Below, one piece after another: positions 4,473 through 64,000 of a stretch of 64,000 nt of DNA. The number at the start of each line of letters is the position of its first letter. The stretch's first letter is position 1. This stretch comes from Candidatus Eiseniibacteriota bacterium (GTDB taxonomy: Bacteria > Eisenbacteria > RBG-16-71-46), in the NCBI GenBank assembly GCA_041483195.1, contig JBGPFC010000008.1, forward strand, positions 44,977-108,976. The letters run 5' to 3'. The notes beneath the pieces were generated by a model that was given only the letters and a program-made list of their open reading frames with translations, ran no database searches and was not told the origin of the DNA. A program made the translations under genes and the position numbers.

Positions 4473-5850
4473 TCGCCTCTCCATCGCTCGCCGCCGCGCT
4501 GCTCGCCGCCGGGGCGCCGGGCGCGTCCGCCGCCGGCCGCTCGGGCTCGGCGCCGGCTTCCATCTCCGGCGTGAACTCCATCTCGCCCGGCGCGTCGCTG
4601 GCGGGCGGGTGGGCGGCGACGTACTCCTGGCCGACCGTCAGCAGCCGCTCGGCGGTCTTCTCGCCGATGCCCGGGATCTCGATCAGCTTCTCGAGCGGGG
4701 TCGCGAGCAGCTCCTGCACGGTCTCGATGCCGGCCGAGATCAGCTTCTCGGTGGTCGCCTCCCCGAGCTCGAGCTTCTCGACCTCGATGCGGCTGGCACG
4801 CTCGACGTCCTGGCGCTTCTTCTCGTCGCTCTTCGAGATCAGGTCGATCTTCCAGCCGGTGAGCCGCGCCGCGAGGCGCGCGTTCTGCCCGCCCTTGCCG
4901 ATCGCGAGCGACAGCTGATCGTCGGCGACCACCAGCACCATGCGCTTGTCGGGTTCCGAGACGCGCACGTCCATGACGCGCGCCGGCGACAGCGCGCGCG
5001 ACACGAACACCGCCGGATCCTGCGACCACGGCACGATGTCGATGCGCTCGCCGCCAAGCTCGCGCACGATGCTCTGCACCCGCGAGCCCTTGAGCCCCAC
5101 GCACGAGCCGACGGCGTCCACGCGCGGGTCGGTCGAGTACACCGAGATCTTCGAGCGGGATCCCGCCTCGCGCGCCACCGCCTTGATCTCGACGATGCTG
5201 TCTGCGATCTCGGGCACCTCGCCCTCGAACAGGCGGCGCAGGAAATCGGGATGGGTGCGCGAGAGGATGACCTGCGGACCCTTGACCGACTTGTCGACAG
5301 CGATCACAACGGCCCGGACGTAGTCCCCCTGGCGGTGGTACGACCGCGGAATCTGTTCGCGCGCGGGGAGGAAGCCCTCGGAGTGGTCGAGCTTCACGAT
5401 CACGTTGCCGCGATCCACCTGCTGGACGACGCCGCGCACCAGCGTTCCGATCTTGTCGGAGTACTCGCGGAACACCCGCTCGCGCTCCGCCTCGCGCACG
5501 CGCTGGATCAGCACCTGCTTCGCGGTCTGCACGGCGTTGCGGCCGAATTCGGCGATCGCCAGCGGGAAGGTGAGCACCTCGCCGACCCGGACGTCGGACT
5601 TGTAGGCGCGCGCCTCTTCGACGGTCATCTGCACGGCGGAGTCCTCGACGGTCTCGACCACAACGCGCCGGATCGCGACGCTGATCGCGCCGGTCTCGTT
5701 CGCGAACTTGACCTCGACGTCCGCGGTGGGCCCGTACTTCTTCCGCACCGCGCTCGCGAGCCCGGCTTCGAGGGTCTCCACGAGCAGCGCCCGATCCACG
5801 CTCTTCTCGCGCGTGATCTGGCTCAGGGCGTCCAGGATTTCGTTGTTCAT
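4465..5850 (-). CDS. nusA: Transcription termination/antitermination factor NusA
   Basis: MNNEILDALSQITREKS N-domain, S1, KH (AREAGSRSKI, AIGKGGQNARLA) and C-terminal HhH (IPGIGEKTA). Confidence 0.97.
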   Translation of the reverse strand: MNNEILDALSQITREKSVDRALLVETLEAGLASAVRKKYGPTADVEVKFANETGAISVAIRRVVVETVEDSAVQMTVEEARAYKSDVRVGEVLTFPLAIAEFGRNAVQTAKQVLIQRVREAERERVFREYSDKIGTLVRGVVQQVDRGNVIVKLDHSEGFLPAREQIPRSYHRQGDYVRAVVIAVDKSVKGPQVILSRTHPDFLRRLFEGEVPEIADSIVEIKAVAREAGSRSKISVYSTDPRVDAVGSCVGLKGSRVQSIVRELGGERIDIVPWSQDPAVFVSRALSPARVMDVRVSEPDKRMVLVVADDQLSLAIGKGGQNARLAARLTGWKIDLISKSDEKKRQDVERASRIEVEKLELGEATTEKLISAGIETVQELLATPLEKLIEIPGIGEKTAERLLTVGQEYVAAHPPASDAPGEMEFTPEMEAGAEPERPAADAPGAPAASSAAASDGEANA

Positions 5851-6335
5851 CGAGCTCTCCCCCGCGAGCGCACGGCGCTCCACGGATCCACGACCAGGCG
5901 TGCCGACTTGACCTCGGCCCACTCGAACCACGTCACGATGCCGTCTTCCATCCGGATTCCGGCGCGACTGTCGTCGGGCGCGAGCAATTCGCCTTCGAAA
6001 TTGCGCCGCCCGCCGCGCGCCTCGCGCAGCTCCACCGCCGCACGCTGTCCAGCAAACCGTGCGATCGCATCGAGCGTCCGCAACGGCCGATCCATACCGG
6101 GAGAGCTGACCTCCAGATCGTAGCTCCCCGGCATGGTCTGGTTCATTTCCAGACAATCCGACAGCCGCCGGCTGAACGCCGCGCAGTCGCCGACCGTAAC
6201 CCCTCCGGGCTTATCGAGCAGCACCCGGATGACCCGGCGCGAACCGCGGACGGCGAACTCGACGTCGACGAGCTCGATCCCCGACTCTTCGGCCAGCGGT
6301 CCCGCCAGCTGGCGAACCTCTTCTCGGACTTCCAA
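5847..6335 (-). CDS. rimP: Ribosome maturation factor RimP
   Basis: DKPGGVTVGDC and YDLEVSSPGMDRPL motifs; first gene of the nusA-infB operon; TTG start. Confidence 0.95.
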   Translation of the reverse strand: MEVREEVRQLAGPLAEESGIELVDVEFAVRGSRRVIRVLLDKPGGVTVGDCAAFSRRLSDCLEMNQTMPGSYDLEVSSPGMDRPLRTLDAIARFAGQRAAVELREARGGRRNFEGELLAPDDSRAGIRMEDGIVTWFEWAEVKSARLVVDPWSAVRSRGRAR

Positions 6336-6353
6336 TTTCGCTCCCGCACCGAC

Positions 6354-6385
6354 AAAAAACGGAGTGGTCGCGCCAGCCCCACTCC
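6354..6385 (-). promoter_or_regulatory. rimP leader terminator-like hairpin (attenuator candidate)
   Basis: Minus strand GGAGTGG-N11-CCACTCC-GTTTTTT just upstream of rimP, downstream of a TTGCCG-N18-TACTCT promoter-like motif (6394-6423). Confidence 0.7.
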
Positions 6386-6452
6386 TGGCGGCCAGAGTAC
6401 ATGAATCTGGCCAGGAACGGCAAGTGCCAACCCCCCTGGGCCGGGGAGGCCC

Positions 6453-7364
6453 CTAGCGGCGCGCCAGCGCGCTACGGTAGACGAGCCAGATCGCCACCCG
6501 GGACACTTCGGCGAGGCTCGCCGCCGAGGTCTGGTCGGGCAGATCCAGGTGCGTGTGCCAGGCGGGGTAATCGAAGTCGATGATGTCGACGGCGGGCAGC
6601 CCGCGCTCCAGCAGCGGGATATGGTCGTCGGTCAGCGCGTGCCGGGGCTCCGCATGGAAGTCGTGCGCGGCCGTCGCGCGTGCCCCTTCCAGCACCAGTG
6701 CCACCAGATTCGACGCGCGCTCGGCCGACTGCACCTCGGGGTAGATGGCCAGGTCGCGGTCCCCGACCATGTCGAACAGGAACGCGGCGAGCGGCCGGCC
6801 GGCGGCGCCGGCTGCTGGGAGCCGGGCCGCGTAGCCGCGCGCGCCGAGGCAGAATGCCTGCGGCTTCGTCGCCTCGCCCTGATCCTCGCCATCGAAGAAC
6901 ACCAGGTCGACGCCCCGCGCGGGTGGACGAAGGTGCATCGCCTCCGCGACCTCGAGGAGAACGGCGACGCCCGATCCGCCGTCGTTCGCTCCGGGCAGCG
7001 GGTCACGCCGATGCCCGGGGTCCGGATCCTGATCGCACCACGGCCGCGTGTCGTAGTGCGCGCACAGCGCGACGCGTCGACCGGCATCGGGTCCGAAGCG
7101 CGCGATGAGATTGCAGAGCTCGATCGGCCGTCCGAGCGTCGAGTCGATGAACGCCTGCCGCTCGATCCGCCCGCCGAGGCGCTGAAGCTCGCCCACCAGC
7201 CATTCGACGGCGGCCGCGTGCCCCGCGCTTCCCGGAACGCGCGGCCCCATCTCGACCTGGTGCACGATCCGGCCCTGCGCTCGCGCGCCGTCCGCGACGA
7301 TGGGGGCCGAGCACGAGCCGAGCGTGAGCGGGATCAGCGTGAGGCACAGCAGGATCGATCTCAT
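6453..7364 (-). CDS. M28-family Zn lipoprotein, glutaminyl-peptide cyclotransferase-like
   Basis: Lipobox LGS-C; motifs AHYDTRP, GANDGGSGVAVLLE, FFDGED, DMVG, DDHIP and WHT resemble Bacteroidota-type glutaminyl cyclases. Confidence 0.85.
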   Translation of the reverse strand: MRSILLCLTLIPLTLGSCSAPIVADGARAQGRIVHQVEMGPRVPGSAGHAAAVEWLVGELQRLGGRIERQAFIDSTLGRPIELCNLIARFGPDAGRRVALCAHYDTRPWCDQDPDPGHRRDPLPGANDGGSGVAVLLEVAEAMHLRPPARGVDLVFFDGEDQGEATKPQAFCLGARGYAARLPAAGAAGRPLAAFLFDMVGDRDLAIYPEVQSAERASNLVALVLEGARATAAHDFHAEPRHALTDDHIPLLERGLPAVDIIDFDYPAWHTHLDLPDQTSAASLAEVSRVAIWLVYRSALARR

Positions 7365-7370
7365 GGGACC

Positions 7371-10300
7371 TCAGAAGCTGAAGGAAGCGCGGAATTCGAC
7401 GCGCACGTTGCGCGAGGTGATCTGCCGCTGGAGATCGCGATTCTGTCCGAAGCCCAGCACCAGCCCGCCGGTGACGCTGTTGCTGAAGGAGTAGTCGCCG
7501 CGGCCGTTCAAGGAGAGCCGGTCCTGGTCGATCGGAAGCTGCGCGCGCCTCGATCCGACGGTCACCGTCTCGCCGCTGGTTCGCGAGTACACGCCGGTGA
7601 GCCCGAGCGACACCGCGCTCTTCACGGTTTTTTCCCGGCCCAGGATCTTGACCTTCTGCCCTCGCGAGTAGGAGCGGCTCAGGCTCAGGTTCACGTCGGT
7701 GTTGCGGTCGGTGCGCGTCGAGCGAAAGAACTGGAAGTTGTCTCGCACCGTGACTCTGCGCTCGATCTTGAGCTCGGCGCGCGTGGCGTTCTTGAAATCG
7801 CCAGAGAGGCTGAGCAGCGGCTGCCACTGGCTGCTGGTCGAGACGCTGGTGGGGGTCTGGTCGCCGGTTCGATAATCGGTGAGGGTCGAGCGGCTGAACG
7901 CGGTCCTGATCCGCGGGCTGGCCAGCACGCGGTCGATGCGAAGCAGGTTGGGAATCCGACCGTATTCGAAATCCAGGTCCGGGAAGCGCGACGTCACCGA
8001 GCGCGTGGAAACGCCATTCATCTGAGTGCGGCGCGTCGTGTACTCGCCGCGAGTCATCACCGTCGCGTCGAGCACGAGACCAAGGCGGGTCCGCGCCGAG
8101 GCGCGCCAGTCCATCGAACGGTTCGAGCTGTTGCCGAACTGGGCATGCATGCCGCTGCCGGACCCGGTCGAGAGGCCGGGGTCGTCCGAGAGTCCCGCGA
8201 GATAGCCGACGCTGGGGATCCCGGTCAGTCGCGAGTAGCCGCTCGACTTGTTGTACGCGGCCTCGGTGCTGATCGCGCCCAGCCGCGCGAGCATGCTCCG
8301 CCAGGAGATCGCCGGCGCGCGGGGCACCTTCCGCGAGGTGTCACCGAGCGCCGGCCGCCCCGCGCGCGCTCCGCCGAACCGGTCGAAGGGAACCGCCCAG
8401 GTTCCCGAGATCGACTGGTTGTTTCCGATCGAGCGCACGCTCAGGTCGGGCGACAGCTCGGGGCGATTGTCCTGCGAGTAGTTCGATCCCCAGCCGAACG
8501 ACGGACTGAGCCATGGACCCTTGTTCACGACGTAACGCGCGTCCATGTTCTGCCGCCAGGTCACGACGCGGCCGAAGTTGATGGGCCCGATCTTCTCGCG
8601 CAGCGCCGGCGCGAGCATGAGATTGCGCAGTGCCTCGAAGTGATGGTGGAGGAACTCGAAGGGGCGGGTGTCCGCGCCGAAGTTGACGGAGGCCGCGCGC
8701 CCTGCGACGGAATTTCGCAGCAGGAGACCGCCGTCGCGGGTCCGGTCGAACGCGCGACTCTGGCTGCTGGAGACGGCGTAGTTCCAGTAGAAACGCTCGG
8801 GCAGTGGATAGAATCGGGCCTTGGTGAGCGGCAGCGGGATCGCGAGCAGGCTCCGGGGCGCGATCCCGTAGTTCACAGCAGACGACTTCGACGTCGAGGT
8901 TCCCACCGAGGTGGGATTGCGGCTGTCGGTCTGCGACCGGCTATGGCTGACGGTGACGCCGCCCAGGGTGTAACGCAGGATGGGATTCGCGCGATCGCTC
9001 CACTGCCGGCGATAGCTGGTCGCGAGGCTGCGCGTCTCTCCGCGGGTCTCGCTCGCGGCCTCGAATGCCCCGGTGCGCAGGATGTCGTCGCCCGCGTTGA
9101 AGCGCGGCTTCGATGAGCTGCGCGCGTAGTTGAGCGCGAGCGGCAGCACGATGCCGGTGGCCTCGAAGAACCGGTGAAGGTCGATGCTGGTCCCCATGTT
9201 GAGCTGGTCGGAGGAGCTGCCGCTGCCGCGGCTCTCTCCCACGCTCTGGAAATTGGCATCGCGCGCGTTCCACGACAGGTTGTAGCTGGCCAGGTTGGCG
9301 AGGCGGCCGTTCACCTGCATGCGCTTCGCGTAGCCCGCGTCCTTCGCGACATCCGTCGCCCGCAGCTCGTCGAACAGCACGCGGCCTCCCGGCATGACGT
9401 GGAGCGGGCTCCGGTTCGCGTTGATGATCCCGAACGAAACGCGGCGCAGGCGTGTGAACGAAGGGCGCCCCTTGATGATGATCGAGTCGTTCCCGGCGGG
9501 ACCGGGCACGCGATACATCGGGTCGGTCGTCGGGAAGCCGAGCTTGAGGTTCGAGAGATCGGTGAGCTTGAGTCGCACCTCCTGCCACGGAATGCGGGTC
9601 GAATCGGGATCGATCGGCAGCCGGGCCTTGTACTCGTAGTAGTTGCGACCCAGCTCGTCCGACGCGAAGCGCACGAAGTACTGGATGTTCTCCAGCGAGT
9701 CCGCGAGCGCCGCATAGTCTTCGAAGCGCGAGCCCCCGATCCAGAAATTGAGCGAGCCGTAGCGGCTGTAGTTCTCGTCGATCGAAAACGTCTTGAAGAC
9801 CTCGAGCGTGTCGTCGGGGGCCAGCTGGGTGAACTCCAGGCCCAGCGACTGTTCGCGCCGGCTGAGCGGCAGGCCGCCGCTGCGATCGGTGCCGGGATCG
9901 AAGGGCGCCGTGTATTCGTCAGCGTTGTCCACGTTGTTCAGCGAGTTGAGCGTCAGCGTGGTTTCGAACTGCTCCTGGTCGGGCGTGAGCGGTGTGCCCT
10001 GCCAGCGGCTGCCGACGATCTCGAGACCGCCCAGCATGAGCAGCGGGCGGGCCGCGGGATCGGGATCCACCAGCGAGTCCACCCACACCCGCACGTGGCG
10101 CGCGAGGGTGAGATCGGGGGCGCCGAACTTGACTCGCAACGCGTCGTTGATCGGGATCCGGTAGCGCCGCCACCCGTTGTCGGCCCGCACCGGATTGCGC
10201 GGGGGCGGGGACACGAAGTCGCGCCTCACGTCGGTCTCGAGATAGGTGTCGCACGTGTCGCACAGGTCCACGGAGTACTCGAAGTAATCCTCGGCGGTGT

Positions 10301-13300
10301 CGATGTTGTTGTTGAGGTTGAGGTCCTCGGTGTCGGGAACCGGATTCAGCGTGTGATTGTTCTCGGTGCCGTTCGCGAAGCGGAACCGCGCCGGATCCAT
10401 GTCCTCGGGCGGACCTTCGGGGACCGCGCGAAAATCATCGCCTTCGGGATCGGAGGACCCCGCGGTGCTCAGATCCCGGATCGGGACGCCCTTCGCGATC
10501 TCCTCGCTGTCGAGCTTGCCATCGAGCCCGGTGTCCTCGTCGTTGCGGTCCGTCACCGTCAGCTGGTGGTCGGGCGGCGAACCCTGGTCTTCGGTCTCGA
10601 GCCGGCCGTCGGGCAGCACGTCGGGCGAAGGCATCTGGTCTTCGCTCACCACGCCCAGGTCGATGTGGAGCTTCACGTGCCGGTTGCGCACGCGGGTGAG
10701 GTCGTCGAAATCGTTGACCCAGAGCTCGATGAACTGGGAGCGCGACAGATCCAGGCCGACCTGGTCGAGCGGAAAGGTGAGCCCGGCCCACAGGAAGTCC
10801 GTCGACTGGGACGTGAGCGGCCGCCGCGGAATGGACAACGCGAGCACCTGATGCGCGGTCTGAGCGCCCTGGGCGTCCGAGAGATTGGGCTTGAGGTCGC
10901 GTTCCTTGATCGCGGCCGGGGGCGAGAACCAGTGGATCTCGGCCTTCCGGCGGCGCGGCACGAGCAGGGTGTCGGTGAGCGGAATCTCGAACCCGCCGCT
11001 CTTGAGGCTCGGCACGCTCGACAATTCCCAGCGCTCCGGGCTCATCGAGACCGTGACGGCGTCGCGCACGCCTTCCATGTCGTCGATGTAGACCACGTTG
11101 CGCGTGTTGGGATTGGGGTACGAAGCGCCCATCTCCGCCTGCACGCTCAGATCGGAGGGCGCCGTCGTTCGCACGCCCGGCAGCCGGTCCACCAGCCGCG
11201 TCACCCACTCGGGATGAAAACCCCAGGCGGTGTTGAGATCGCCGATCAGGCTGCGCGACGGCTCCTCGCCGAGCCGCGGCCGCAGGTCCTGCGCGCCCTT
11301 GCTCTCGTACATGAACGCGCCGCCGAAGCTCTTGTCCCGGCCCTCGAGCCGGAACGCGTTCCCGACCAGCGTGCGCCCCGCCTGCTGGAAGAGCGGGGCG
11401 TACGAGTAGTCGATGTTGAGCTGGTCGGCCGGACCGAGCTGTCGCTTCAGGACGACGCGACCCAGGTCGTAGTCGATGGTGTAGTCGCGATCCCGGACCA
11501 GCGCCTGGCCGTTGATCGTCACGACGTCCGAGCCCTCGATCAGGGTGCCGCGGCCCAGGTTGATCTCGCCCTGCGCGCGCGCCGCCGTGAACTCCGCGTC
11601 GATGTAGTAGCGGGTATCGAGCGAGCGCTGCAGGTAATACTGATCGTAGATCGCGGCGTTCGCCCCGTTCGAGCTGTCCGGCGGCCCCACCAGCGAGTCC
11701 CGACGGTTCAGCGCGTTGCTGACGAACTGGTCGAACGGATACCGCGGGTGAACACGGCCGTCGGTCCCCAGGAAATTGTGCCCCACGCGCGGGGCGAACG
11801 GGCGGAGATCGAAGAAGAACAGCGTCCCGTTCTCGAAGTCCACGAACAGCTGCCGGCTGTCGGTGGTGGCCGCGGCGCCGTCCACCTTGCCGTCGTGCCC
11901 GGGATCGAGCGTCCCGCGCGTCTGGTCGAAATTATCGAGACCCAGCACCTCGATGTACGGCACCGCGCTGTCGCCGCGCGAGCGGATGAACGTCACCGGC
12001 GGGTCGTCGACGCCCTTGCGGATGGTGAGCGTGAAGCTGGCCGGGTCGATCCGCTGGCCGGCCAGCTGGTAGAAATTGTGAAGCTCGAGATCGCGGGTCG
12101 AGACGAAGACGTTCGTGGTGTCGAAGTTCCCGGAGTCGTCGGGCCGGATGACGCTGGCGGGCGCACGCAGCAGCTTCATGAAGCGGCGCTGGGCTCCGTC
12201 CGCCTCCACCGAGTCCTGTCCTCCGACCGGAAACTCCGGGCCGGGCGTGCCGCCGGGCCCGATGCGCCGCGCGTTGTAGGTGATGGCCAGACGCTGCTCG
12301 CCGGTCACGGCGCGGTGCATGCGGATGATCTTGTAGAACGGGTTGTAGACGTTGTCGAGAATCTCGTAGTCCTGATCGGCGCCGGGATGGAGCGGCGCAA
12401 AGACGCCGCGCACCGAGGTCGAGTCGTTGCAGCCCGGGCAGGTGAGACCGAGATCGACGAAGGCCCGCCCCGCGACCGAGTTCTGGTCGTTGCTGTAGTT
12501 GTAGTCGTCGAGGTAGAGCTGCACGCTGGTGTTCGGGATGTCGAGCAGATCGAGGTTGGGATCGTAGAGAAAGAAGTAGACGCCCTTCATGTAGTCGAGG
12601 TCGGCGAGCGTCTGGGTCTGCCGGGACGCTCCCCCCGAGTACGCCGCGCGCTCGCTCTTCCCCTCCTGCTTGCTGGCGAGCACCGTGAAGTCGAGCGGCC
12701 CGAGACGCATCGCGGTCTTCACCCCGAACAATCCCTCGTTCTTGCCGCTGTAGGAGACGTATTGCGTGCCCGGCAGCGAGAGGTTCGTGTTCCCGAGGTC
12801 GAGCGCCTGCACGACGTCGTCCTCGTCGCCCTTGTAATTGATCGCGATGCGGTTCGCGAGCGGGATCTGAATGCCCGAATTCTGAAGCAGGTTGACGCGA
12901 ATGCGGTCGGAGAGCTGGCCCTCGAGCTGAATGTTGAGGTCCTGCTGCATGTCGAGCGATGGGAACAGCGATGGCTTGCGCCCGAGCGGACCGAGCTGCT
13001 GGTTCGTCCAGTTGCTCTGCCCGGAGAGCCGGATGTTCTCCGATCCCGACACGTTGAGCGCGGGGCCCCCGGGGCCCAGCAGGCTCTGCACCTTTCGCGG
13101 GAGCGGCGAGGGGAGCTTGAACGAGAGCCCCCCCGGCGCGGCGGAGGCGGCCGCGGTGGGCGCCAGGCTCGAGGTGCGGATCGCCAGAGCGGAGCGTTCC
13201 AGCCATTGTCGCTGGAAGCTGCGCTGGGTGAGATCGGCGCTGTAGAACTGCAGCGGCTCGCGCATCCCGTCTCCGATCCGCGCCGAGCCCACCTCGGAGA

Positions 13301-13583
13301 ACGCGTTCACCGTCCCAGAGTCGGGATCGAAACCGATGCGGAGCTGGCGCGGGTCGTACTTCAACTTGAGCCCCCGCGGCGACGGCTGGAGCGACGGCAG
13401 CGTCGGCCGCACCAGGTGGTCCTCCAGTGCCAGGCGGGATGAGGTCTTCCACTGCGGCGGCAGGGTGTCGGCCGGCGCCGGGGGCGTTCGCTTGAGCTTG
13501 ATCCCGTGAAGCCAGGGCAGGCCCGGCACGCCCGACAGCCCCAGAATCAGCGTGACGGCCGGCAGCGTCAGGGAGGTCAGCAT
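7371..13583 (-). CDS. sprA: SprA/Sov-like giant outer-membrane beta-barrel (type IX secretion translocon homologue), 2070 aa
   Basis: SprA signatures: LEGQLSDRIRVN...INYKGDEDDVVQALDLGNTNLSLP...GLFGVKT, EGSDVVTING...DYTIDYDLG, YIDDMEG, DLGVVSED, EDTGLDG, DTEDLN; amphipathic beta-strand C-terminus ending in Phe. Confidence 0.9.
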   Translation of the reverse strand: MLTSLTLPAVTLILGLSGVPGLPWLHGIKLKRTPPAPADTLPPQWKTSSRLALEDHLVRPTLPSLQPSPRGLKLKYDPRQLRIGFDPDSGTVNAFSEVGSARIGDGMREPLQFYSADLTQRSFQRQWLERSALAIRTSSLAPTAAASAAPGGLSFKLPSPLPRKVQSLLGPGGPALNVSGSENIRLSGQSNWTNQQLGPLGRKPSLFPSLDMQQDLNIQLEGQLSDRIRVNLLQNSGIQIPLANRIAINYKGDEDDVVQALDLGNTNLSLPGTQYVSYSGKNEGLFGVKTAMRLGPLDFTVLASKQEGKSERAAYSGGASRQTQTLADLDYMKGVYFFLYDPNLDLLDIPNTSVQLYLDDYNYSNDQNSVAGRAFVDLGLTCPGCNDSTSVRGVFAPLHPGADQDYEILDNVYNPFYKIIRMHRAVTGEQRLAITYNARRIGPGGTPGPEFPVGGQDSVEADGAQRRFMKLLRAPASVIRPDDSGNFDTTNVFVSTRDLELHNFYQLAGQRIDPASFTLTIRKGVDDPPVTFIRSRGDSAVPYIEVLGLDNFDQTRGTLDPGHDGKVDGAAATTDSRQLFVDFENGTLFFFDLRPFAPRVGHNFLGTDGRVHPRYPFDQFVSNALNRRDSLVGPPDSSNGANAAIYDQYYLQRSLDTRYYIDAEFTAARAQGEINLGRGTLIEGSDVVTINGQALVRDRDYTIDYDLGRVVLKRQLGPADQLNIDYSYAPLFQQAGRTLVGNAFRLEGRDKSFGGAFMYESKGAQDLRPRLGEEPSRSLIGDLNTAWGFHPEWVTRLVDRLPGVRTTAPSDLSVQAEMGASYPNPNTRNVVYIDDMEGVRDAVTVSMSPERWELSSVPSLKSGGFEIPLTDTLLVPRRRKAEIHWFSPPAAIKERDLKPNLSDAQGAQTAHQVLALSIPRRPLTSQSTDFLWAGLTFPLDQVGLDLSRSQFIELWVNDFDDLTRVRNRHVKLHIDLGVVSEDQMPSPDVLPDGRLETEDQGSPPDHQLTVTDRNDEDTGLDGKLDSEEIAKGVPIRDLSTAGSSDPEGDDFRAVPEGPPEDMDPARFRFANGTENNHTLNPVPDTEDLNLNNNIDTAEDYFEYSVDLCDTCDTYLETDVRRDFVSPPPRNPVRADNGWRRYRIPINDALRVKFGAPDLTLARHVRVWVDSLVDPDPAARPLLMLGGLEIVGSRWQGTPLTPDQEQFETTLTLNSLNNVDNADEYTAPFDPGTDRSGGLPLSRREQSLGLEFTQLAPDDTLEVFKTFSIDENYSRYGSLNFWIGGSRFEDYAALADSLENIQYFVRFASDELGRNYYEYKARLPIDPDSTRIPWQEVRLKLTDLSNLKLGFPTTDPMYRVPGPAGNDSIIIKGRPSFTRLRRVSFGIINANRSPLHVMPGGRVLFDELRATDVAKDAGYAKRMQVNGRLANLASYNLSWNARDANFQSVGESRGSGSSSDQLNMGTSIDLHRFFEATGIVLPLALNYARSSSKPRFNAGDDILRTGAFEAASETRGETRSLATSYRRQWSDRANPILRYTLGGVTVSHSRSQTDSRNPTSVGTSTSKSSAVNYGIAPRSLLAIPLPLTKARFYPLPERFYWNYAVSSSQSRAFDRTRDGGLLLRNSVAGRAASVNFGADTRPFEFLHHHFEALRNLMLAPALREKIGPINFGRVVTWRQNMDARYVVNKGPWLSPSFGWGSNYSQDNRPELSPDLSVRSIGNNQSISGTWAVPFDRFGGARAGRPALGDTSRKVPRAPAISWRSMLARLGAISTEAAYNKSSGYSRLTGIPSVGYLAGLSDDPGLSTGSGSGMHAQFGNSSNRSMDWRASARTRLGLVLDATVMTRGEYTTRRTQMNGVSTRSVTSRFPDLDFEYGRIPNLLRIDRVLASPRIRTAFSRSTLTDYRTGDQTPTSVSTSSQWQPLLSLSGDFKNATRAELKIERRVTVRDNFQFFRSTRTDRNTDVNLSLSRSYSRGQKVKILGREKTVKSAVSLGLTGVYSRTSGETVTVGSRRAQLPIDQDRLSLNGRGDYSFSNSVTGGLVLGFGQNRDLQRQITSRNVRVEFRASFSF

Positions 13584-13719
13584 GGAAGCCCCAAACTATA
13601 CGCGCCTCCGAGGATGGAGGCGCAGGGGGCGACCGTAGCAGGCCAAGCTTCAGCGGTCAAAGCCTTTACGGGCAAATGTGTTCGCTCCAGAGCCGGCCGA
13701 TGGGGTAGTGTGCGCGATC

Positions 13720-15087
13720 GTGCGCATCCTTCGTACCTACATACTCCGACTGCATCTGGTTCCCTTCCTGCTCGGGTTCGGCGTCGTCACGTTCATCCTC
13801 GAGATGGACGTGATGTTCGACTACCTCGACCTCGTGGTAAACCGGGGGGTCGCGCTGGGTGTGGTGGCCCAGTTGTTCCTGCTTTCGCTCGGCTACATCA
13901 TCGCGCTCTCGGCGCCGTGCGCGGTGCTGATCGCCGTCCTGATGACCTTCGGCCGCCTGTCGCAGGACAACGAGATCACCGCGCTGCGAGCCAGCGGCGT
14001 CAACCTGGCGCAGGTGCTGATCGGCCCGCTGCTCGCTGCGGTCGCCCTCCAGTTCGGGCTCACCTACTTCAACAACCGCGTGCTGCCCGAGACCAATCAC
14101 GCGTTCGCCAATCTGCTGATCGACATCGGGCGCATGCGCCCCACCGTTCGCCTGCAGGAGGGCGTGTTCATCACCGACTTTCCCGGTTACAACCTGCTGG
14201 TGCAATCCGTGAACGGCCGCACCAACGAGATGAGCGGGGTGACGATCTACAAGCTCAATCCCGGTGTGCCGCCCACCACGATCCTCGCGAAGCACGGCAC
14301 GCTCGAGTACACGCCGGACGGAAAGACCGCGGTGCTGCGGCTGCGTGACGGCGAGATCCACGAGATCCCGTCGGAAGAGGGTGGATCGCGACGCTACCGG
14401 CGGATGGTGTTCAAGACCCACGTCATCTACATCTCCGGCGCCGGCGGGCTGCTGGAGCACACGGTGCGCGACTCGCGCAGCGACCGCGAGATGACGACCG
14501 ATGCGCTGATCGATGAACGCGCCAGCATGCGCGAGCAGTACGATCGGGCGATCGCGCTCCGTCGCGACCGGCTTCGGCAGATGGGCGCGCCCGGACCCGT
14601 GATCGACGCGCTCGCGCCGGAGCGGCTTCCGTGGAGCGGACAGGTGCGCGCGACCTGGGCGGCGCTGGTCTCGCGCGAAGACCCGCTCGAGCGGTTCGCG
14701 AGCGCGCAGCCGGCGCTCCGTACCGAGATCGACCTGTGGCGGGTGGAACGCTCCGCGCTGAGACGCCGGATCGCATCGCTCTCGGTGGAGATCCAGAAGA
14801 AGTACTCGCTGCCGGCGGCGTGCGTGGTGTTCGTGTTGCTCGGGGCGCCGCTCGGGATGCGCGTGCGGCGCGCCGGCCCGGCCGTGGCGTTCGTATCGAT
14901 CGCGTTCTTCCTGTTCTACTACCTGTGTCTGATCGGCGGCGAGGAGCTCGCCAACCGGCTGTTGCTGCCGCCCTGGCTCTCGATGTGGCTCCCCAACCTG
15001 GTGCTCGGCGCGTGGGGCCTGGTCGCGACCCTGCGCACCTGCGAACTGTGGCGCCCGCGCGCGCGCCCGGCGGCACGGCCCGCTTGA
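13720..15087 (+). CDS. lptF: LPS export ABC transporter permease LptF (with a large periplasmic insertion)
   Basis: VRILRTYILR, FGRLSQDNEITALRASG and EIQKKYSLPAAC...LGAPLG (YjgP/YjgQ family); GTG start at 13720. Confidence 0.9.
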   Translation: MRILRTYILRLHLVPFLLGFGVVTFILEMDVMFDYLDLVVNRGVALGVVAQLFLLSLGYIIALSAPCAVLIAVLMTFGRLSQDNEITALRASGVNLAQVLIGPLLAAVALQFGLTYFNNRVLPETNHAFANLLIDIGRMRPTVRLQEGVFITDFPGYNLLVQSVNGRTNEMSGVTIYKLNPGVPPTTILAKHGTLEYTPDGKTAVLRLRDGEIHEIPSEEGGSRRYRRMVFKTHVIYISGAGGLLEHTVRDSRSDREMTTDALIDERASMREQYDRAIALRRDRLRQMGAPGPVIDALAPERLPWSGQVRATWAALVSREDPLERFASAQPALRTEIDLWRVERSALRRRIASLSVEIQKKYSLPAACVVFVLLGAPLGMRVRRAGPAVAFVSIAFFLFYYLCLIGGEELANRLLLPPWLSMWLPNLVLGAWGLVATLRTCELWRPRARPAARPA

Positions 15088-16163
15088 AGATCCTCGACCG
15101 CTACGTGCTCCGCGAGTTCATGGGCTACGTCGCGCTCGGGCTGGCGGGCTTCATCGTCATCTTCGTGGTGGTGGATCTCTTCGAGAAGATCGACGTCTTC
15201 CTGGATCATCGCGCGCCGTTCGAGTTGATCGCGCGCTTCTACCTGTACCGCGCGCCGGAGGTGGTGGTGCAGGTGCTGCCGGTCGCGCTGCTGCTCGCCA
15301 CCTTTCTCGCGCTCGGCCAGCTCAACAAGTTCGGTGAGCTCACGGCGATGCGCTCGGCGGGCCTGCCGCTCATGCGCATCCTCACCACGGTGTTCGCGAG
15401 CGCGCTCGCCGCGGCCGCGATCTCGCTCCTGCTCGGCGAACTGGTGGTGCCGGCCGCGAACCGCGAACGCGACCGCATCTACGACGAGCAGATCCAGCGC
15501 CTCAAGCGCGATCTGGTGACCGAGCGCGCCGACGTGACCTACCTGGGGAACGGCGGTCGGATCTTCTACATCCGCCTCTACCTCGTGCTCGAGAAGCGCA
15601 TGCACGAGGTCGCGCTCCAGGAGTTCGCGCACGGGGACCTGGTACGGCGCATCGACGCGGCCGAGGCGACCTGGGACGGACATCAGTGGGTGTTCGCATC
15701 GGGCTACATCCGCCGCTTCGAGGCGGGCCGGGAGATCGCGACCCCGTTCCAGCGCCTTCCGGCCCCCGATCTGGGCGAGACGCCGGACGATTTCGCCAAG
15801 GAGAGCCTCAAGCCCGCCGAGATGAACTACCTCCAGCTGCGCCGCTACATCGTGCGGCTGCGCGCGAGCGGTTTGCGGGTCGCAAACTACCTGGTGGACC
15901 TCCATCTCAAGCTCGCGTTCCCGCTCTTCAACATCATCGTGGTCATGATCGGAGCGTCGGTGGCCACCCGGCTCCGGCTCCAGAGCCCCGCGCTCGGCTT
16001 CGGGCTCTCGGTGTGCATCGCGTTCGTGTTCTGGGGCAGCATGCAGCTCGGCAAGGCGCTCGGCCACAGCGGCATGATGCCGCCGTACGTCGCGGCCTGG
16101 TTCAGCGACGTGTTGTTCGGCGCGGTGGGCGTTGGGCTGCTCGCGGACGCGCAGCGGAACTGA
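15084..16163 (+). CDS. lptG: LPS export ABC transporter permease LptG
   Basis: TTG start overlapping the lptF stop; LKILDRYVLREF, LNKFGELTAMRSAG, LHLKLAFP. Confidence 0.9.
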   Translation: MKILDRYVLREFMGYVALGLAGFIVIFVVVDLFEKIDVFLDHRAPFELIARFYLYRAPEVVVQVLPVALLLATFLALGQLNKFGELTAMRSAGLPLMRILTTVFASALAAAAISLLLGELVVPAANRERDRIYDEQIQRLKRDLVTERADVTYLGNGGRIFYIRLYLVLEKRMHEVALQEFAHGDLVRRIDAAEATWDGHQWVFASGYIRRFEAGREIATPFQRLPAPDLGETPDDFAKESLKPAEMNYLQLRRYIVRLRASGLRVANYLVDLHLKLAFPLFNIIVVMIGASVATRLRLQSPALGFGLSVCIAFVFWGSMQLGKALGHSGMMPPYVAAWFSDVLFGAVGVGLLADAQRN

Positions 16164-16900: not shown

Positions 16901-18268
<1,368 letters not shown>

Positions 18269-18278
18269 TCGCCCCCGG

Positions 18279-19478
18279 TCAGCCCATCCGGCCGGGACGA
18301 GACGCCCCGGCCGGCGTGGCCAGACCCGGGGACGCAGGCGAGGCGCCGCCCTTGTCGCGCTCGCCGCCGGTGGTCGCGGCGTCCACGGGCTGCCACATGC
18401 GATCGGAGGTGGCCGAGATGCCCTTGAGCTTGAGTCCGAGCTCGTTCGGATTCGAGCAGTTCTTGAGCGCCTCTTCCTCGGTGATCAGCCCCTCGCGCAG
18501 CAGGTGCAGCACCGATTGATCGAAGGTCTGCATTCCATACTGGGTGACGCCCTCGGCGACCAGGGCCCCGAGCAGCGAGACCTTGTCCGCATCGAGAATG
18601 TACTCGCGAATGGTGGGCGTGTTCACCATGACCTCGACCGCCGGCACGCGTCCCGCGCCGTCCGCGCGCGGGATCAGTCGCTGCGAGATCACGGCGCGCA
18701 GATTCGAGGCGATCGACAGGCGCACCTCGTCGTGCTGGTGGGGCGGGTAGAACGAGACGACGCGCTGGAGCGTCTGGACCACGTCGGTGGTGTGGAGCGT
18801 CGACATCACGAGGTGGCCGGTGTCGGCCGCCATCAGCGCGCTGCTCATGGTCTCGAGATCGCGGATCTCACCGACCAGGATGATGTCGGGGTCCTGGCGC
18901 AGCACGTACTTGAGACCGGCATGGAACGAGTGGGTGTCGAGCCCGACCTCGCGCTGGTGAATGAACGACAGGCGATCGCGGTGGAGGAACTCGATCGGGT
19001 CCTCGACCGTGATGATGTTGCGGTTGGTGACCTTGTTGATCGAGTCGATCATCGCGGCGAGCGTGGTGGACTTGCCGGACCCGGTGCGGCCGGTGACCAG
19101 GATCAGGCCGCGCGGCGTGAACGCCAGCTCGCTCACCACTGCCGGCAGATGCAGGTCCTCGAGGGTCGGCACGTCGACCGGCACGTGGCGCAGCGCGAGG
19201 GCCGGCGTGCCGCGCTGCATGAAGATGTTCGCGCGGAAGCGCGCGAGACCCGAGACTCCGAACGCGAAATCGATCTCGCTGTGGGTCGTGAAGTGCTGCC
19301 GCTGCTCTTCGTTGAGCAGCTGATTGCAGACATCGCGGAGATCCGCAGCGTTCGGGGGCGGCTCGTCGAGCGTGTAGAGTACGCCGTCGACGCGCACCAC
19401 CGGGGGCGTGCCGGTCTTGAGATGGAGATCGCTGGCCCGGGCGGCGATCATCTTTTCGAGCACGCTGCGGATGTTCAT
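18279..19478 (-). CDS. pilT: Type IV pilus retraction ATPase, PilT/PilU family
   Basis: ASDLHL, Walker [52 protein letters not shown]. Confidence 0.9.
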
Positions 19479-19509: not shown

Positions 19510-20091
19510 TCAGGCCGGGTCGACCAGGAACAGCTTCTGGCCGAACTCCACCGGATGGGCGTTCTCCACCAGGATCTCGACCACCCGTCCGCGCACTTCC
19601 GACTCGATCTCGTTCATGAGCTTCATGGCTTCGATGATGCAGACCGTCTGGCCCACCTCGACCATGCTGCCCACTTCTGCATAGAGATCGGCGTCGGGCG
19701 CGGGCGCCCGGTAGAAAGTCCCGACCATCGGAGACGTGATCGCGACGAGCCGCTCGCTTTTCGCGGGAGCCGCGGGGGCGTTCGCGCCCGGGGCGTGCCC
19801 CGCTCCTGCCGTCACCGGAGCGGGGGATTGACCGGCCGCGCCCGCGGCCGGAAACGCCACGGATACCGGAGCGCCTGGTTGGGCGGAGATTCGAACCGCC
19901 CTGCCGCCGGAACTGACCTCGATCTCACCGATGCCGGTGCGCTGAACCAGGCGGATGAGCCGACGAAGCTCCGCGAAATCGATGCCGCCTGGCATCGCGC
20001 TTCCGGCGTTATCGTCGCGGTTGGGAGTCGACTTGACCGGTTTGCTGGTGCGCGCGGCGCGGCGCGCGCGCTTAGGTCTCGCGGGCGGCAC
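19510..20091 (-). CDS. accB: Acetyl-CoA carboxylase biotin carboxyl carrier protein
   Basis: SPMVGTFY and [10 protein letters not shown] biotinylation motif; the start could alternatively be ATG 19995. Confidence 0.95.
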
Positions 20092-53513: not shown

Positions 53514-53613
53514 GCGAGGCGTCGGGTATTGACCGCTCCGGCGCGCCGGGTCTAGTCTGCGCTCTCCGAAAACTTTGCCACACAGTCGACGGCCCACATG
53601 AATGGAGGACGTC

Positions 53614-59918: not shown

Positions 59919-59978
59919 TCCGCCGTGCCGGCCGCCCGGCGCGCTTCGGCCCAGCGGCGGGTCCGGCCCGAGGCCCAC

Positions 59979-61001: not shown

Positions 61002-61413
61002 CGCTCTTCCGGTGATCGCGTCGGCCGCCGAGCGCTGCGGACCCGATGCGTTCACAGGGGCCGAACCCGGTGGCCGGCACAATCGCGCGCGGCTCGGGTT
61101 CAGGGTCGCCACACAAAGTTTATCAGCGCCGAAACCCGCCACGCTTCGATTCAGAGTGCCTCGAGATCACGGCGCGCTCGTCCAAAATCAGCGATGCGGG
61201 GCACTCGCTTCCGAATTTGTCCTTCCCTTCGGCGGCTCGCGCCCCGTACCCTGATGTCAGAATATTGCGAGATGCGGTTTTCGTCGTCTCCGCCGCGGGC
61301 CCGGAGCGACGATGTGGTGCTGCCCTCCCAACCACATGAGTTTAGGAGTCCGTGCACGGAGCCACCCCAGGCTCATGCATGTCATTCGCGGTTCACCACA
61401 GCCGGAGGAAAGT

Positions 61414-64000
61414 ATGACACCCAGGACACTGCGGCGCACCTCGCTCACTGTTGCGCTGGTGGCGGCCATGGTCGCGCTGGTCGCGACGTACGCCCCCCGT
61501 TCCGCCACGGCGCAAGACACCGGCCCCATCTACCTCAGGGGAAACCAGGCTGTTCAGGACGATCGCATTCAGCTGCTCCGCGAGGAGTTCCGTGAGCGGC
61601 AGAAGGAAATCCGCGAGCAGACCGAGCGCGCGAAGCACGCGAAGCATGCAAAGCAGGCGCACGGACGGAAGGCCGAACAGTCCACCACGAACGATGACTA
61701 CGCCGGCCGCAGCGCATCGCTGGCGCGTTCCGCTTCGCCATTCGGCATCGATCGCATTCTTGTCGCCCCGACAAACGTCAAGGCCAACGACAAGACCGGC
61801 GATGCTGTCGGCGCCGGACAGGCGGAGCAGAGCAGCGCGTTCCTCGGCCTCAACGGCCTGTGCGCGTGGAATGACGGCCAGGGTTTCAACCTGACCCCGC
61901 AGGACGTGCAGGGCTACGGCTGGTCGAACGACGGCGGTGCGACCTGGACCGACGGCGGCATTCCGCTCAAGAGCGGCACCATCGCGACCTGGTCGAGCGA
62001 TCCGTCCGTCACGGTCAACGAAAAGACCGGCGACTTCTACTACACAGGGCTCACCACGAACACGGGCACCAACAACAACGGCGTCGCGGTGGCGCGTGGC
62101 CATTTCACCGCCGGCGTGTTCGGGTGGGACGCGACGACGCAGGTGGCCGCCGGCCCCGGCGCCAGCCAGGGATTCGACAAGGAGTGGATGTGCGCCGATT
62201 CGTCCAACGGCAACCTCTACGTCACCTGGACGCTGTTCGTCCCCGGTGCTGACAACATTTTCTTCTCGCGCTCCACGAACAACGGCGCCACCTGGAGCGC
62301 TCCGCTCCAGATCAACGGCACGTGGGAAAGCGGCCTGGTATCCGGCTCGCGCCCGATGGTGGGACCGAACGGTGAGGTCTACGTCCAGTACACCGCGATC
62401 GGCCCGGTGGATGCCGACTCGGTCAAGATCGCCAAGTCCACGAACGGCGGCGCCAGCTTCTCGCCGGCGGTGGTGGCCATGACCGAGTACGACAACTACT
62501 TCACCGGCGGGCCGGGATTCAATCGCCCGCGCGCGGTCACGTTCGCGTCCGGGGCCGTGGATCGCAGCACGGGCCCGAATCGCGGCCGCGTGTACATGAC
62601 GATCCAGGACTGCGTGAACTTCTACGGCGATGGATTCTTCATCAACAGCGGCAGGAGCGAGGTCGAGGTCAACAACGGGTTTGCCAACGCGACACCGTTC
62701 ACGATCGGTCAGACGCTGCGTGGCTCGCTGACCCTTGTGACGGACCAGGACTGGTTCAGTTTCCCCGCGACGATGGGGACGACTTACCTCTTCTACGTAG
62801 ACTCGCTCCGGACCACAAGCCTCAGATACCAGATGCGTCTCTACTGCCCGAACGACACGACGATTCTGTCACGCCTCGCATCCAGTGGCGCCCAGGCCAC
62901 CACTAGCGCGCAGAATTCGCACTCCCTGATCGTGTGGACCGCCCCGACCACGAATACCTATTACCTGCGCATGATCCCGTTGACGGTGAGTGCCGTCAAC
63001 GGCGGCTACCGCATCCTGACCGGCACGCATGCGCCGAGCGGGTCGGACGTCGCCCGCGACACGCGCGACGTCATGATGTCGTCTTCGGCCAACGGCGTGA
63101 CGGGGTGGAGCCCCCGGGTGCGCGTGAACGACGATCTGGCGCTGTACGACAACTGGCTGCCCGAGGTGGCGGTCCCGTGCGACGGCAAGCCATACATCAT
63201 GTGGTTCGACTGGCGGGACACGCCGGCCTCATGCTTCGGCGGTACCAATATCTACCTCTCGCGCTCGACCGACGCCGGCGCAACTTGGGCGGCGAATCAG
63301 ACGGCCACCACTGCGACCACCGCCAACTGGACGCAGGTGGCCAGCAACATCGCGCCGAACCAGGGCGACTACAACGGCATGTACGGCGGCGACTGCGTCG
63401 CCCTCTCCATGGCCGACGGCCGCCTCGGCGACGCCGACGTGTTCACCGCCCGGATCACCACCGGGTTCACGCTGAGCGGCTGCCCCGGCGATCAGGTGGT
63501 GGTCGCGTCAACGACCTTCAGCGGCGGCGTTACCGTGAACAACCTGAACCAGATGTTCGGCAACACCTACACGTACACGGTGTCGGTGGATCGCAACTGG
63601 CCCGGCTTCCCGGCGACGAGCAACGTCTCCACGGGAGCGCTCGGATCCGGCGCGATTCCCATCTCCATCCCGGTTCCGGACTCCGCGGCGCACCTCGAAG
63701 TCGTGAGGGTGTGCGTCACGGTCTCGCAGGATGGCGCGTGCGTGTCGCAGTGCTGCTTCAACCTCACGGTGACCAACCCGACCACCGGAGCGCTGGCGTC
63801 GCTCGCAAGCTCGAGCGCCGAACCCGGCCACGTGAGCCTGAGGTGGTTCGTGCAGGGCTCTTCGGCGGTGAAGGTGTACCGCACCGAGGACGGCGCGGGC
63901 TGGACTTCGCTGGGCATGGTCTTGCCGAGCGCAGGCTACGTGAACTTCGAGGACACGAACGTCCGCGCGGGGATTCGGTACGGGTATCGCCTCGGCATTC
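61414..64000 (+). CDS. Large secreted BNR/Asp-box beta-propeller protein with PPC-like insert and Ig-like domains (runs off the window end; probable T9SS-like cargo)
   Basis: Absent from the ORF track because there is no stop in the window. ATG 61414 with GGAGGA; signal peptide ...RSATA-Q; Asp boxes SNDGGATW, STNNGATW, STNGGASF, STDAGATW; EVEVNN...DQDWFSF; terminal VSLRW...VYR...FED...YGYRL domain. Confidence 0.88.
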   Translation, partial: MTPRTLRRTSLTVALVAAMVALVATYAPRSATAQDTGPIYLRGNQAVQDDRIQLLREEFRERQKEIREQTERAKHAKHAKQAHGRKAEQSTTNDDYAGRSASLARSASPFGIDRILVAPTNVKANDKTGDAVGAGQAEQSSAFLGLNGLCAWNDGQGFNLTPQDVQGYGWSNDGGATWTDGGIPLKSGTIATWSSDPSVTVNEKTGDFYYTGLTTNTGTNNNGVAVARGHFTAGVFGWDATTQVAAGPGASQGFDKEWMCADSSNGNLYVTWTLFVPGADNIFFSRSTNNGATWSAPLQINGTWESGLVSGSRPMVGPNGEVYVQYTAIGPVDADSVKIAKSTNGGASFSPAVVAMTEYDNYFTGGPGFNRPRAVTFASGAVDRSTGPNRGRVYMTIQDCVNFYGDGFFINSGRSEVEVNNGFANATPFTIGQTLRGSLTLVTDQDWFSFPATMGTTYLFYVDSLRTTSLRYQMRLYCPNDTTILSRLASSGAQATTSAQNSHSLIVWTAPTTNTYYLRMIPLTVSAVNGGYRILTGTHAPSGSDVARDTRDVMMSSSANGVTGWSPRVRVNDDLALYDNWLPEVAVPCDGKPYIMWFDWRDTPASCFGGTNIYLSRSTDAGATWAANQTATTATTANWTQVASNIAPNQGDYNGMYGGDCVALSMADGRLGDADVFTARITTGFTLSGCPGDQVVVASTTFSGGVTVNNLNQMFGNTYTYTVSVDRNWPGFPATSNVSTGALGSGAIPISIPVPDSAAHLEVVRVCVTVSQDGACVSQCCFNLTVTNPTTGALASLASSSAEPGHVSLRWFVQGSSAVKVYRTEDGAGWTSLGMVLPSAGYVNFEDTNVRAGIRYGYRLGI

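Follow-up and report, generated by a model that had tools for sequence, protein, structure and literature searches.

The question raised by this locus is whether a gene for a SprA/Sov-family outer-membrane translocon, lying directly before a gene for a putative glutaminyl cyclase (QC) in a bacterium outside the Bacteroidota, belongs to a type IX secretion system (T9SS), and of what kind. The locus was found in a stretch of 64,000 nucleotides (the window) from Candidatus Eiseniibacteriota bacterium (GenBank assembly GCA_041483195.1, contig JBGPFC010000008.1, positions 44,977 to 108,976 of the forward strand). An earlier note, made from the letters of the window, had inferred a divergent T9SS-like pathway in a high-GC organism, with uncharacterised motor and shuttle components and with cargo maturation genetically coupled to export. 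The follow-up analysis supports such a pathway (PorU, PorV family and cargo domain present, GldKLMN not detected; G+C content of the window 0.66-0.73), and the sprA-QC pair is in all likelihood part of a genuine outer-membrane core of type IX secretion in a phylum other than the Bacteroidota, in which no known motor was detected and to which QC is genetically attached. The elements at the centre of the locus are as follows.

7371..13583, minus strand: sprA, encoding a 2070-aa SprA/Sov-family outer-membrane translocon, with an ATG start, a hydrophobic N-terminus and the C-terminal end ...EFRASFSF

7365..7370, minus strand: spacer between sprA and QC, GGTCCC, 6 nt, the junction reading TTC TGA / GGTCCC / ATG

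6453..7364, minus strand: QC, encoding a predicted 303-aa lipoprotein of M28 fold, with an ATG start, a homologue of the Bacteroidota type II (animal-like) glutaminyl cyclase

The 2070-aa protein scored 523.6 bits against the SprA/Sov equivalog TIGR04189 (cut-off 200) in a protein profile search, 516.6 bits against the same profile in a six-frame search of the genome, and 100.4 bits against Pfam SprA_N, and a sequence search of the PDB matched it to the solved F. johnsoniae SprA (6h3i_A) with an E value of 1.4e-39. A fold model was made of residues 1080-2070 (the C-terminal 991 aa) only, with an alignment of 31 relatives as input. It had a mean predicted local distance difference test score (pLDDT) of 81.5 and long strands, and its top four matches in a Foldseek search of the PDB were 8gl6_A, 8gl8_A, 6h3i_A and 6h3j_A (E 2.5e-36 to 2.1e-29, TMq 0.46), the next chain following only at E 2e-5. 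Profile, sequence and the model of residues 1080-2070 all agree on a SprA-like giant barrel, and the SprA homologue named in the earlier note was confirmed. Compared with SprA of Flavobacterium johnsoniae and Sov of Porphyromonas gingivalis (PDB 6H3I, 6H3J, 8GL6, 8GL8), the likeness lies in the equivalog score, the C-terminal fold and the co-occurrence with PorV-family, PorU and cargo-domain proteins. The protein differs in its length (2070 aa against 2403 aa for known SprA), in sharing only 21-23 % identity with Bacteroidales SprA, and in its setting, since the gene adjoins QC and lptFG in a phylum without detected GldKLMN (and without detected PorP in the three genomes searched), unlike the canonical one.

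A scan for SprA relatives, limited to one genome per species, returned 38 loci, of which 34 were 47-78 % identical to the window SprA, mostly over full-length matches, while the remaining four were Bacteroidales at 21-23 % identity. The records of the 34 close loci are titled Candidatus Eisenbacteria (24), "uncultured bacterium" (8), "bacterium" (1) and Candidatus Saccharimonadaceae (1), and with these relatives and this distance from Bacteroidales SprA the contig does not look like that of an ordinary member of the Bacteroidota or Rhodothermota with a canonical T9SS. The locus titled Candidatus Saccharimonadaceae (L054, DATJGS010000010.1) holds a full Eisenbacteria-type block on a 302-kb contig, with identities to the window of 55 % for SprA, 68 % for QC, 85 % for NusA and 86 % for AccC; its title is probably a mislabel or a binning error.

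The window's own genome (G000; 4.17 Mb in 93 contigs, 96.8 % complete) was searched with profiles for other T9SS parts, as the earlier note had proposed. The type-A C-terminal domain (CTD) of T9SS cargo (TIGR04183) gave 101 matches, 94 of them over the cut-off, and a CTD profile built from 30 matches found 125 of 2762 crude open reading frames (ORFs), with the domain at the very C-terminus in 110 and a median length of 720 aa. The PorU sortase was present at 459.9-461.5 bits against NF033707 (cut-off 420), and four barrels of the PorV/PorQ family scored 182.9, 161.5, 188.9 and 167.6 bits against the subfamily profile NF033709, all over its cut-off of 90. The first of these, encoded directly after porU, also exceeded the cut-off of Pfam PorV (61.7 bits, cut-off 27) and reached 116.9 bits against the equivalog NF033710 (cut-off 250). 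GldL (TIGR03513), GldM (TIGR03517) and GldN had no match in this genome. PorP gave only 16-17 bits here, on PorV-like genes, and nothing in the Eisenbacteria genomes G031 and G054 (three genomes searched), against 222.6 and 210.2 bits in the Bacteroidales controls (2/2). Without a search aimed at PorW/SprE, PorT/SprT, PorZ, PorE or Plug, PorZ (NF052228) turned up only weakly, with 15.7-20.6 bits on the C-termini of three proteins, of which two have a recognised CTD. With a PorV-family shuttle and the PorU sortase recognisable, only the GldKLMN motor/ring and PorP are missing from view, so the earlier description of uncharacterised components applies to the latter and not to the shuttle.

The same pattern extends through the phylum. 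Among 81 Eisenbacteria genomes (46 genera; 78 genomes at ≥90 % completeness), SprA was found in 79 genomes and all 46 genera, and PorU in all 81 at E≤1e-30, 66 of them over the cut-off. GldM (TIGR03517), GldL_N (PF22827) and GldN (PF19841) were each found in 0/81 at E≤0.01 and in both Bacteroidales controls, and GldL_N and GldN had no match even at E≤0.1 in three Eisenbacteria genomes. GldK (TIGR03525) exceeded its cut-off in none of the 81 genomes, with partial FGE-domain matches in two, and in all seven Bacteroidales controls. If one genome flagged as unpublished (G014) is dropped, the counts become 78/80 for SprA, 80/80 for PorU and 0/80 for the Gld families.

The porU gene lies outside the window, in a cluster on contig C33 of the same genome (14883-30249; loci L087 and L088) that comprises porU, porV, a gene for an M6-like CTD protein (1202 aa; NF052323 112 bits, under the cut-off), and genes for a small membrane-type protein of about 206 aa with the motif PGWGQ, an NHL propeller of 314 aa and a barrel of 1115 aa. 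Ten loci from families across the phylum were compared, one of which ends after porU, and among those reaching far enough the order is kept for porU-porV in 9/9, for the M6-like CTD protein in 8/9, for the small protein in 9/9, for the NHL propeller in 6/7 and for the 1115-aa barrel in 7/7. The nearest atlas clusters of the small protein are hypothetical proteins of WOR-3, Fidelibacterota and Latescibacterota, one with DUF5683 in 10 % of its members. The 1115-aa barrel was considered as a "half-size SprA" and rejected as such: BLASTP to SprA gave E 1e-5 over 54 aa (a short N-terminal motif) and 1e-3 over 169 aa, TIGR04189 gave 17.8 bits, hhalign against the C-terminal half of SprA gave E 0.16, and the model (pLDDT 66.9) drew Foldseek matches in which SprA chains were mixed with TonB-dependent receptors, MtrB and LptD, all at about E 1e-7 to 1e-6. 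As modelled, the protein is a large outer-membrane barrel whose kinship with SprA is not established.

Further genes of these families were noted elsewhere in the genome. A second C25/PorU-like protein (1643 aa; C11:80734-88505, L189; NF033707 224.8 bits, under the cut-off; PorU2 87.8 bits) carries a CTD too. Its gene adjoins that of an 839-aa protein containing a peptidyl-prolyl isomerase domain of the parvulin type, and PorU-like paralogues of this kind occur in many genomes of the phylum. Three further PorV/PorQ-family barrels are encoded, the first between a CTD cargo gene and the gene for a 1533-aa protein (C14:28315-29466, L190), the second beside the gene for a GWxTD-domain protein (C7:107688-109070, L191), and the third between the gene for an NHL protein and that for a barrel resembling TonB-dependent receptors, in which a carboxypeptidase-regulatory domain is present (C11:55566-56699, L192). 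There are three MotA/ExbB/TolQ genes, one of which, 8 kb from a PorV paralogue, was considered as an alternative stator and rejected, as it belongs to a Tol-Pal-type cluster with glycolysis genes between, and for this one, the only one of the three examined, no T9SS link was found.

The second gene of the pair had been described as encoding an M28 glutaminyl-cyclase-like lipoprotein, and this description holds. The protein matched Pfam Peptidase_M28 with 103.1 bits, and its closest solved relatives are Bacteroidota type II QCs, the best PDB matches being 3tc8 (a structural-genomics entry; E 1.1e-47), PgQC (6qql, 9.8e-47; 7cje, 1.1e-46) and TfQC (6qro, 9e-45), with 4fuu, whose sequence is named glutamine cyclotransferase in 7d1d/7d1e, at 1.9e-39. 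Against PgQC (PG2157; 6QQL, 7CJE), TfQC (6QRO) and the B. thetaiotaomicron QC (4FUU), the matches (E 1e-47 to 1e-39) cover near-full length with shared motifs, and GANDGGSG, FFDGED and DDHIP align residue for residue with PgQC, with which AWHT aligns too. Residues H103, D105, D128, E160, D161, D198, D246, D247, H248, W269, H270 and T271 are invariant in 13 Eisenbacteria orthologues; the D of GANDGGSG, the E-D of FFDGED and the H of DDHIP are presumably the metal-binding and catalytic ones. The N-terminus, MRSILLCLTLIPLTLGSC, has a hydrophobic stretch followed by L-G-S-C, which would fit the lipobox rule for lipoprotein signals, and the Cys after the signal peptide is kept in all of the 13 orthologues that include the N-terminus. 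By sequence, the 303-aa lipoprotein is an orthologue of the Bacteroidota type II glutaminyl cyclase, and it would be expected to have cyclase activity. A lipoprotein-type N-terminus is common to the window QC and PgQC, the latter carrying a lipobox and sitting at the inner membrane (PMC5837995).

At the junction of the two genes, a ribosome-binding site (GAGG) overlaps the sprA stop codon 5 nt before the QC ATG, and no terminator-like site was found in 5700-7600, that is, none between sprA and rimP. The sprA and QC genes form a tight two-gene unit, which is probably co-transcribed. Their neighbours and the intergenic region upstream are as follows.

5847..6335, minus strand: rimP (RimP_N 79.9 bits)

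13584..13677: divergent intergenic region between sprA and lptF, 94 nt

13601-13624, minus strand: G+C-rich hairpin of 9 bp, then TATAGTTTGG, 18 nt upstream of the sprA ATG

13678..15087, plus strand: lptF, lipopolysaccharide export permease (LptF_LptG 260.6 bits), divergent from sprA, a conserved neighbour

15099..16163, plus strand, start approximate (the listed ORF opens at 14631): lptG (LptF_LptG 272.8 bits, residues 157-504 of the 510-aa ORF)

The hairpin is the one terminator-like site found in the sprA/lptF intergenic region, where chance would give 0.2. The minus-strand genes run in the order sprA, QC, rimP, nusA, infB, rbfA, ribF. The 6-nt spacing of the M28 gene and the divergence from lptFG had been read correctly in the earlier note (lptF lies 94 nt from the sprA start), as had the lack of gld/por genes nearby: no Gld/Por family was found among 35 window ORFs, rimP included, scanned against Pfam.

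Conservation of this order was examined by tblastn (E≤1e-8) on 34 Eisenbacteria-type loci. QC follows sprA in 28/28 loci that extend beyond sprA at its 3' end, and the other six break off within sprA; nusA comes after QC in every locus with enough downstream DNA, lptF/G is divergent upstream of sprA in 31/31 loci reaching upstream, and the order lptGF<>sprA-QC-rimP-nusA-infB is kept in all loci reaching far enough. Since the order around accC is conserved too, and gene order is generally frozen in the phylum, adjacency within the phylum is by itself weak evidence of coupling, and metagenome contigs were therefore scanned for the pair with a QC alignment. This yielded 80 loci, 8 at 61-75 % identity and 72 at 35-48 %. 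Of 34 distant loci whose contig extends 3 kb or more upstream of QC, 15 have sprA directly before QC on the same strand, namely L109, L111, L115, L116, L118, L120, L125, L126, L133, L134, L146, L149, L159, L160 and L163; with 1 kb or more upstream, the count is 18 of 54. In the 15 loci, the giant SprA-like ORF stops 9-340 nt short of the QC match, and the SprA is 20-28 % identical to that of the window, near full length wherever the contig reaches, and equally far from Bacteroidales SprA (20-27 %). With a G+C content of 0.43-0.71, the 15 loci appear from these identities to represent lineages other than Eisenbacteria and Bacteroidales, and lptF/G is divergent before sprA in eight of the distant sprA-QC loci. 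The pair was found in none of seven Bacteroidales genomes; all seven have SprA and a QC homologue (33-40 % identity) on different contigs, in contrast to the 6-nt spacing in the window.

The N-termini of exported proteins were examined for glutamine, the substrate residue of QC, in ORFs whose N-terminus is basic and then runs into a hydrophobic core. For each, the polar residue that comes first behind the core was recorded (D, E, K, R, Q, N and H counted, among which Gln makes up 9 % in the proteome). Two home-made sets of cleavage-site rules had been dropped because many sites were misplaced by eye, and an EM (expectation-maximisation) motif sampler because it converged on the hydrophobic core. 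Gln was the first polar residue in 13/54 CTD proteins (24 %), 73/510 other signal-peptide candidates (14 %) and 67/728 internal hydrophobic windows used as the control (9 %). The difference between CTD proteins and control was significant (Fisher, odds ratio 3.1, p 0.002), and Asn, taken as a comparison residue, showed no enrichment (p 1.0). In Bacteroidetes, Gln follows the signal peptide in 71 % of cases on average (Bochtler et al., PMC5837995), against 24 % of CTD cargo and 14 % of other exported proteins by the present proxy.

How the missing motor is to be understood depends on what the profiles can see. On balance, this lineage appears to run the outer-membrane core without the known motor, and it is rather unlikely that it has a canonical T9SS whose GldK/L/M/N and PorP equivalents have diverged past recognition by Bacteroidota-trained profiles. 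Several points nevertheless weigh against the preferred reading. The motor was sought by profile searches, and every profile was built from Bacteroidota, so that the searches would overlook a motor that has diverged very far or is not homologous; the NCBIfam models are set at equivalog level, their cut-offs being high, and none of the four barrels reached the PorV, PorQ or PorV2 equivalog cut-off. The periplasmic domains of GldM and the cytoplasmic tails of GldL vary even inside the Bacteroidota, and the porU-porV cluster holds conserved proteins without known function (the 206-aa membrane-type protein, the NHL propeller and the 1115-aa barrel). On the other side, three independent families (GldL_N, GldM and GldN) gave no match at E≤0.01 in any of the 81 genomes, whereas the SprA (at 21-23 % identity), PorU and PorV of the same genomes are easily matched by profiles of the same origin, which counts against a motor that is merely too divergent. 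The sole GldK-like match in the window's own genome, a candidate on contig C3 with 50.5 bits (cut-off 350), proved to be a generic PKD and FGE-sulfatase protein with unrelated neighbours, none of them L/M/N-like.

The attachment of QC to this core is open to two further doubts. That the 303-aa protein is an M28 aminopeptidase trimming exported proteins, and no glutaminyl cyclase, is very unlikely: although its Pfam family is Peptidase_M28, the close PDB entries 3tc8, 3gux and 7d1b are titled leucine aminopeptidase or Zn-dependent exopeptidase, and the two-zinc positions, taken here to be H103, D128, E160/D161, D198 and H248, are seemingly all filled, the biochemically named top relatives (6qql, 7cje, 6qro and the 4fuu sequence as 7d1d/7d1e) are glutamine cyclotransferases. 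Further matches down to E 1e-11 are all animal QCs (E 1e-16 to 1e-11; human QC 2afm, 5e-13), the first aminopeptidase outside the structural-genomics entries, 2ek8, appears only at 4.6e-7, and the FFDGED, DDHIP and AWHT motifs shared with PgQC are invariant among the orthologues. A weightier alternative, a real possibility if short of an even chance, is that the adjacency is inherited order within an envelope-biogenesis neighbourhood (lptFG, sprA, QC) without specific coupling, QC being a general periplasmic enzyme for Sec substrates, as in Bacteroidota. It fits the synteny of the whole region, accC included, across the phylum, and the 19/34 distant loci in which sprA was not found upstream of QC. 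In at least four of the distant loci (L138, L162, L168 and L171; G+C about 0.67-0.69 where computed), QC and lptF/G are immediate divergent neighbours without sprA between them, so a QC-lptFG link exists without SprA. It also fits the Gln counts, in which enrichment over the control extends to non-CTD signal-peptide proteins (p 0.006), and in which Gln is about 1.9 times commoner in CTD cargo than in those proteins, a difference that is not significant (p 0.07). The test itself was crude, with crude gene calls, a home-made signal-peptide filter and the first polar residue in place of a mapped cleavage site; as estimated in this way, the enrichment is moderate, far under the Bacteroidetes mean and not confined to T9SS cargo. 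The consulted part of Bochtler 2018 (PMC5837995) likewise describes the Q-rule for proteins of every compartment and finds no part for it in T9SS targeting. Against inherited order stand the higher Gln frequency in CTD cargo just given, the 6-nt spacer in the window with its ribosome-binding site over the stop codon, and the recurrence of the pair, at gaps of 9-340 nt, where SprA is only 20-28 % identical and G+C ranges from 0.43 to 0.71, a divergence long enough for unselected order to decay. Of the earlier inference that cargo maturation is genetically coupled to export, the conserved gene pair stands; QC itself probably serves Sec-exported proteins in general, and only about a quarter of CTD cargo seem to have a Gln start.

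Near its right edge the window also contains the beginning of a cargo gene of the type discussed.

61312..64000, plus strand, running off the window: 5' part of a type-A CTD cargo gene (CTD at C8:109054-109290, 34.2 bits)

This ORF (C8_106288_109302) reads ...PRSATA/QDTG after the signal peptide and is without a Pfam family. Elsewhere, a T2SSE (PilT/T2SSE-type) ATPase gene (18279-19478, minus strand, 160.8 bits) lies between accC (16901-18268) and a biotin carboxyl carrier gene (19510-20091), and three plus-strand ORFs (49624-51876, 53602-54474 and 59925-61001; 750, 290 and 358 aa) show a strong third-position GC bias and no Pfam family at E≤1e-5.

Under the preferred reading of a type IX outer-membrane core with QC attached, type-A CTD cargo (about 100 proteins per genome) would cross the inner membrane via Sec and lose its leader to signal peptidase I, after which the membrane-anchored QC would turn the N-terminal Gln of about a quarter of the cargo into pyroglutamate. 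The CTD would then bring the cargo to SprA with a PorV-family barrel, and PorU would cut off the CTD, the cargo being released or anchored.

The T9SS has been called exclusive to Bacteroidetes (PMC5790014, PMC5445135) and has been placed by reviews in the Fibrobacteres-Chlorobi-Bacteroidetes (FCB) superphylum (PMC11205867, PMC12398890), and possible systems in Chlorobi, Fibrobacteres and Ignavibacteriae were reported from BLAST searches (Bochtler et al., PMC5837995). TXSScan, whose model includes GldK-N, found the T9SS in 60/97 Bacteroidetes genomes and, according to the consulted part of the paper, in no other clade (Abby et al. 2016, PMC4793230). Measured against that model, the window's genome has SprA, PorU, type-A CTD cargo and a member of the PorV/PorQ family in common with the canonical Bacteroidota system, and differs in the lack of detected GldK, GldL, GldM and GldN (as in all 81 genomes of the phylum) and of PorP (as in all 3 genomes searched), so that TXSScan would call no T9SS here. 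NCBIfam already has models named PorU2, PorV2 and "T9SS-dependent M6-like inactivated metalloprotease", which indicates that variant forms of type IX sorting are known to its curators. No publication treating Eisenbacteria and type IX secretion together was found in a search that did not cover paper supplements, whose taxon tables might list such genomes, and the portion consulted of a paper that names both Eisenbacteria and a secretion system (PMC11495043) does not mention the T9SS. Among the matches listed for SprA and glutaminyl cyclase, the topics were Alzheimer's disease, other medical subjects and biotechnology, none of them the T9SS.

For the Bacteroidota, the T9SS is taken to include the GldLM/PorLM motor and the PorKN ring among its core parts, and genome-scanning models require them; here a whole phylum has the pore (79/81) and the sortase (81/81), and the searches of its 81 sampled genomes turned up no sign of the motor. 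It may be proposed, tentatively, that a SprA-PorV-PorU core hard-wired to QC beside lptFG represents ancestral type IX secretion, common to Eisenbacteria and several other lineages and working without the proton-driven GldLM/PorLM motor and the PorKN ring. The Bacteroidota would on this view have gained the motor and the ring later, perhaps in connection with gliding, and secretion through SprA would be powered in another way. Through the conserved sprA-QC pair, the formation of N-terminal pyroglutamate is linked genetically to type IX secretion, a connection noted in work on P. gingivalis only as a phylogenetic coincidence. If the reading is true, it would show CTD-dependent secretion to reach further among soil bacteria than has been known, raise the question of how transport through SprA is energised, and offer a natural minimal system in which to answer it.

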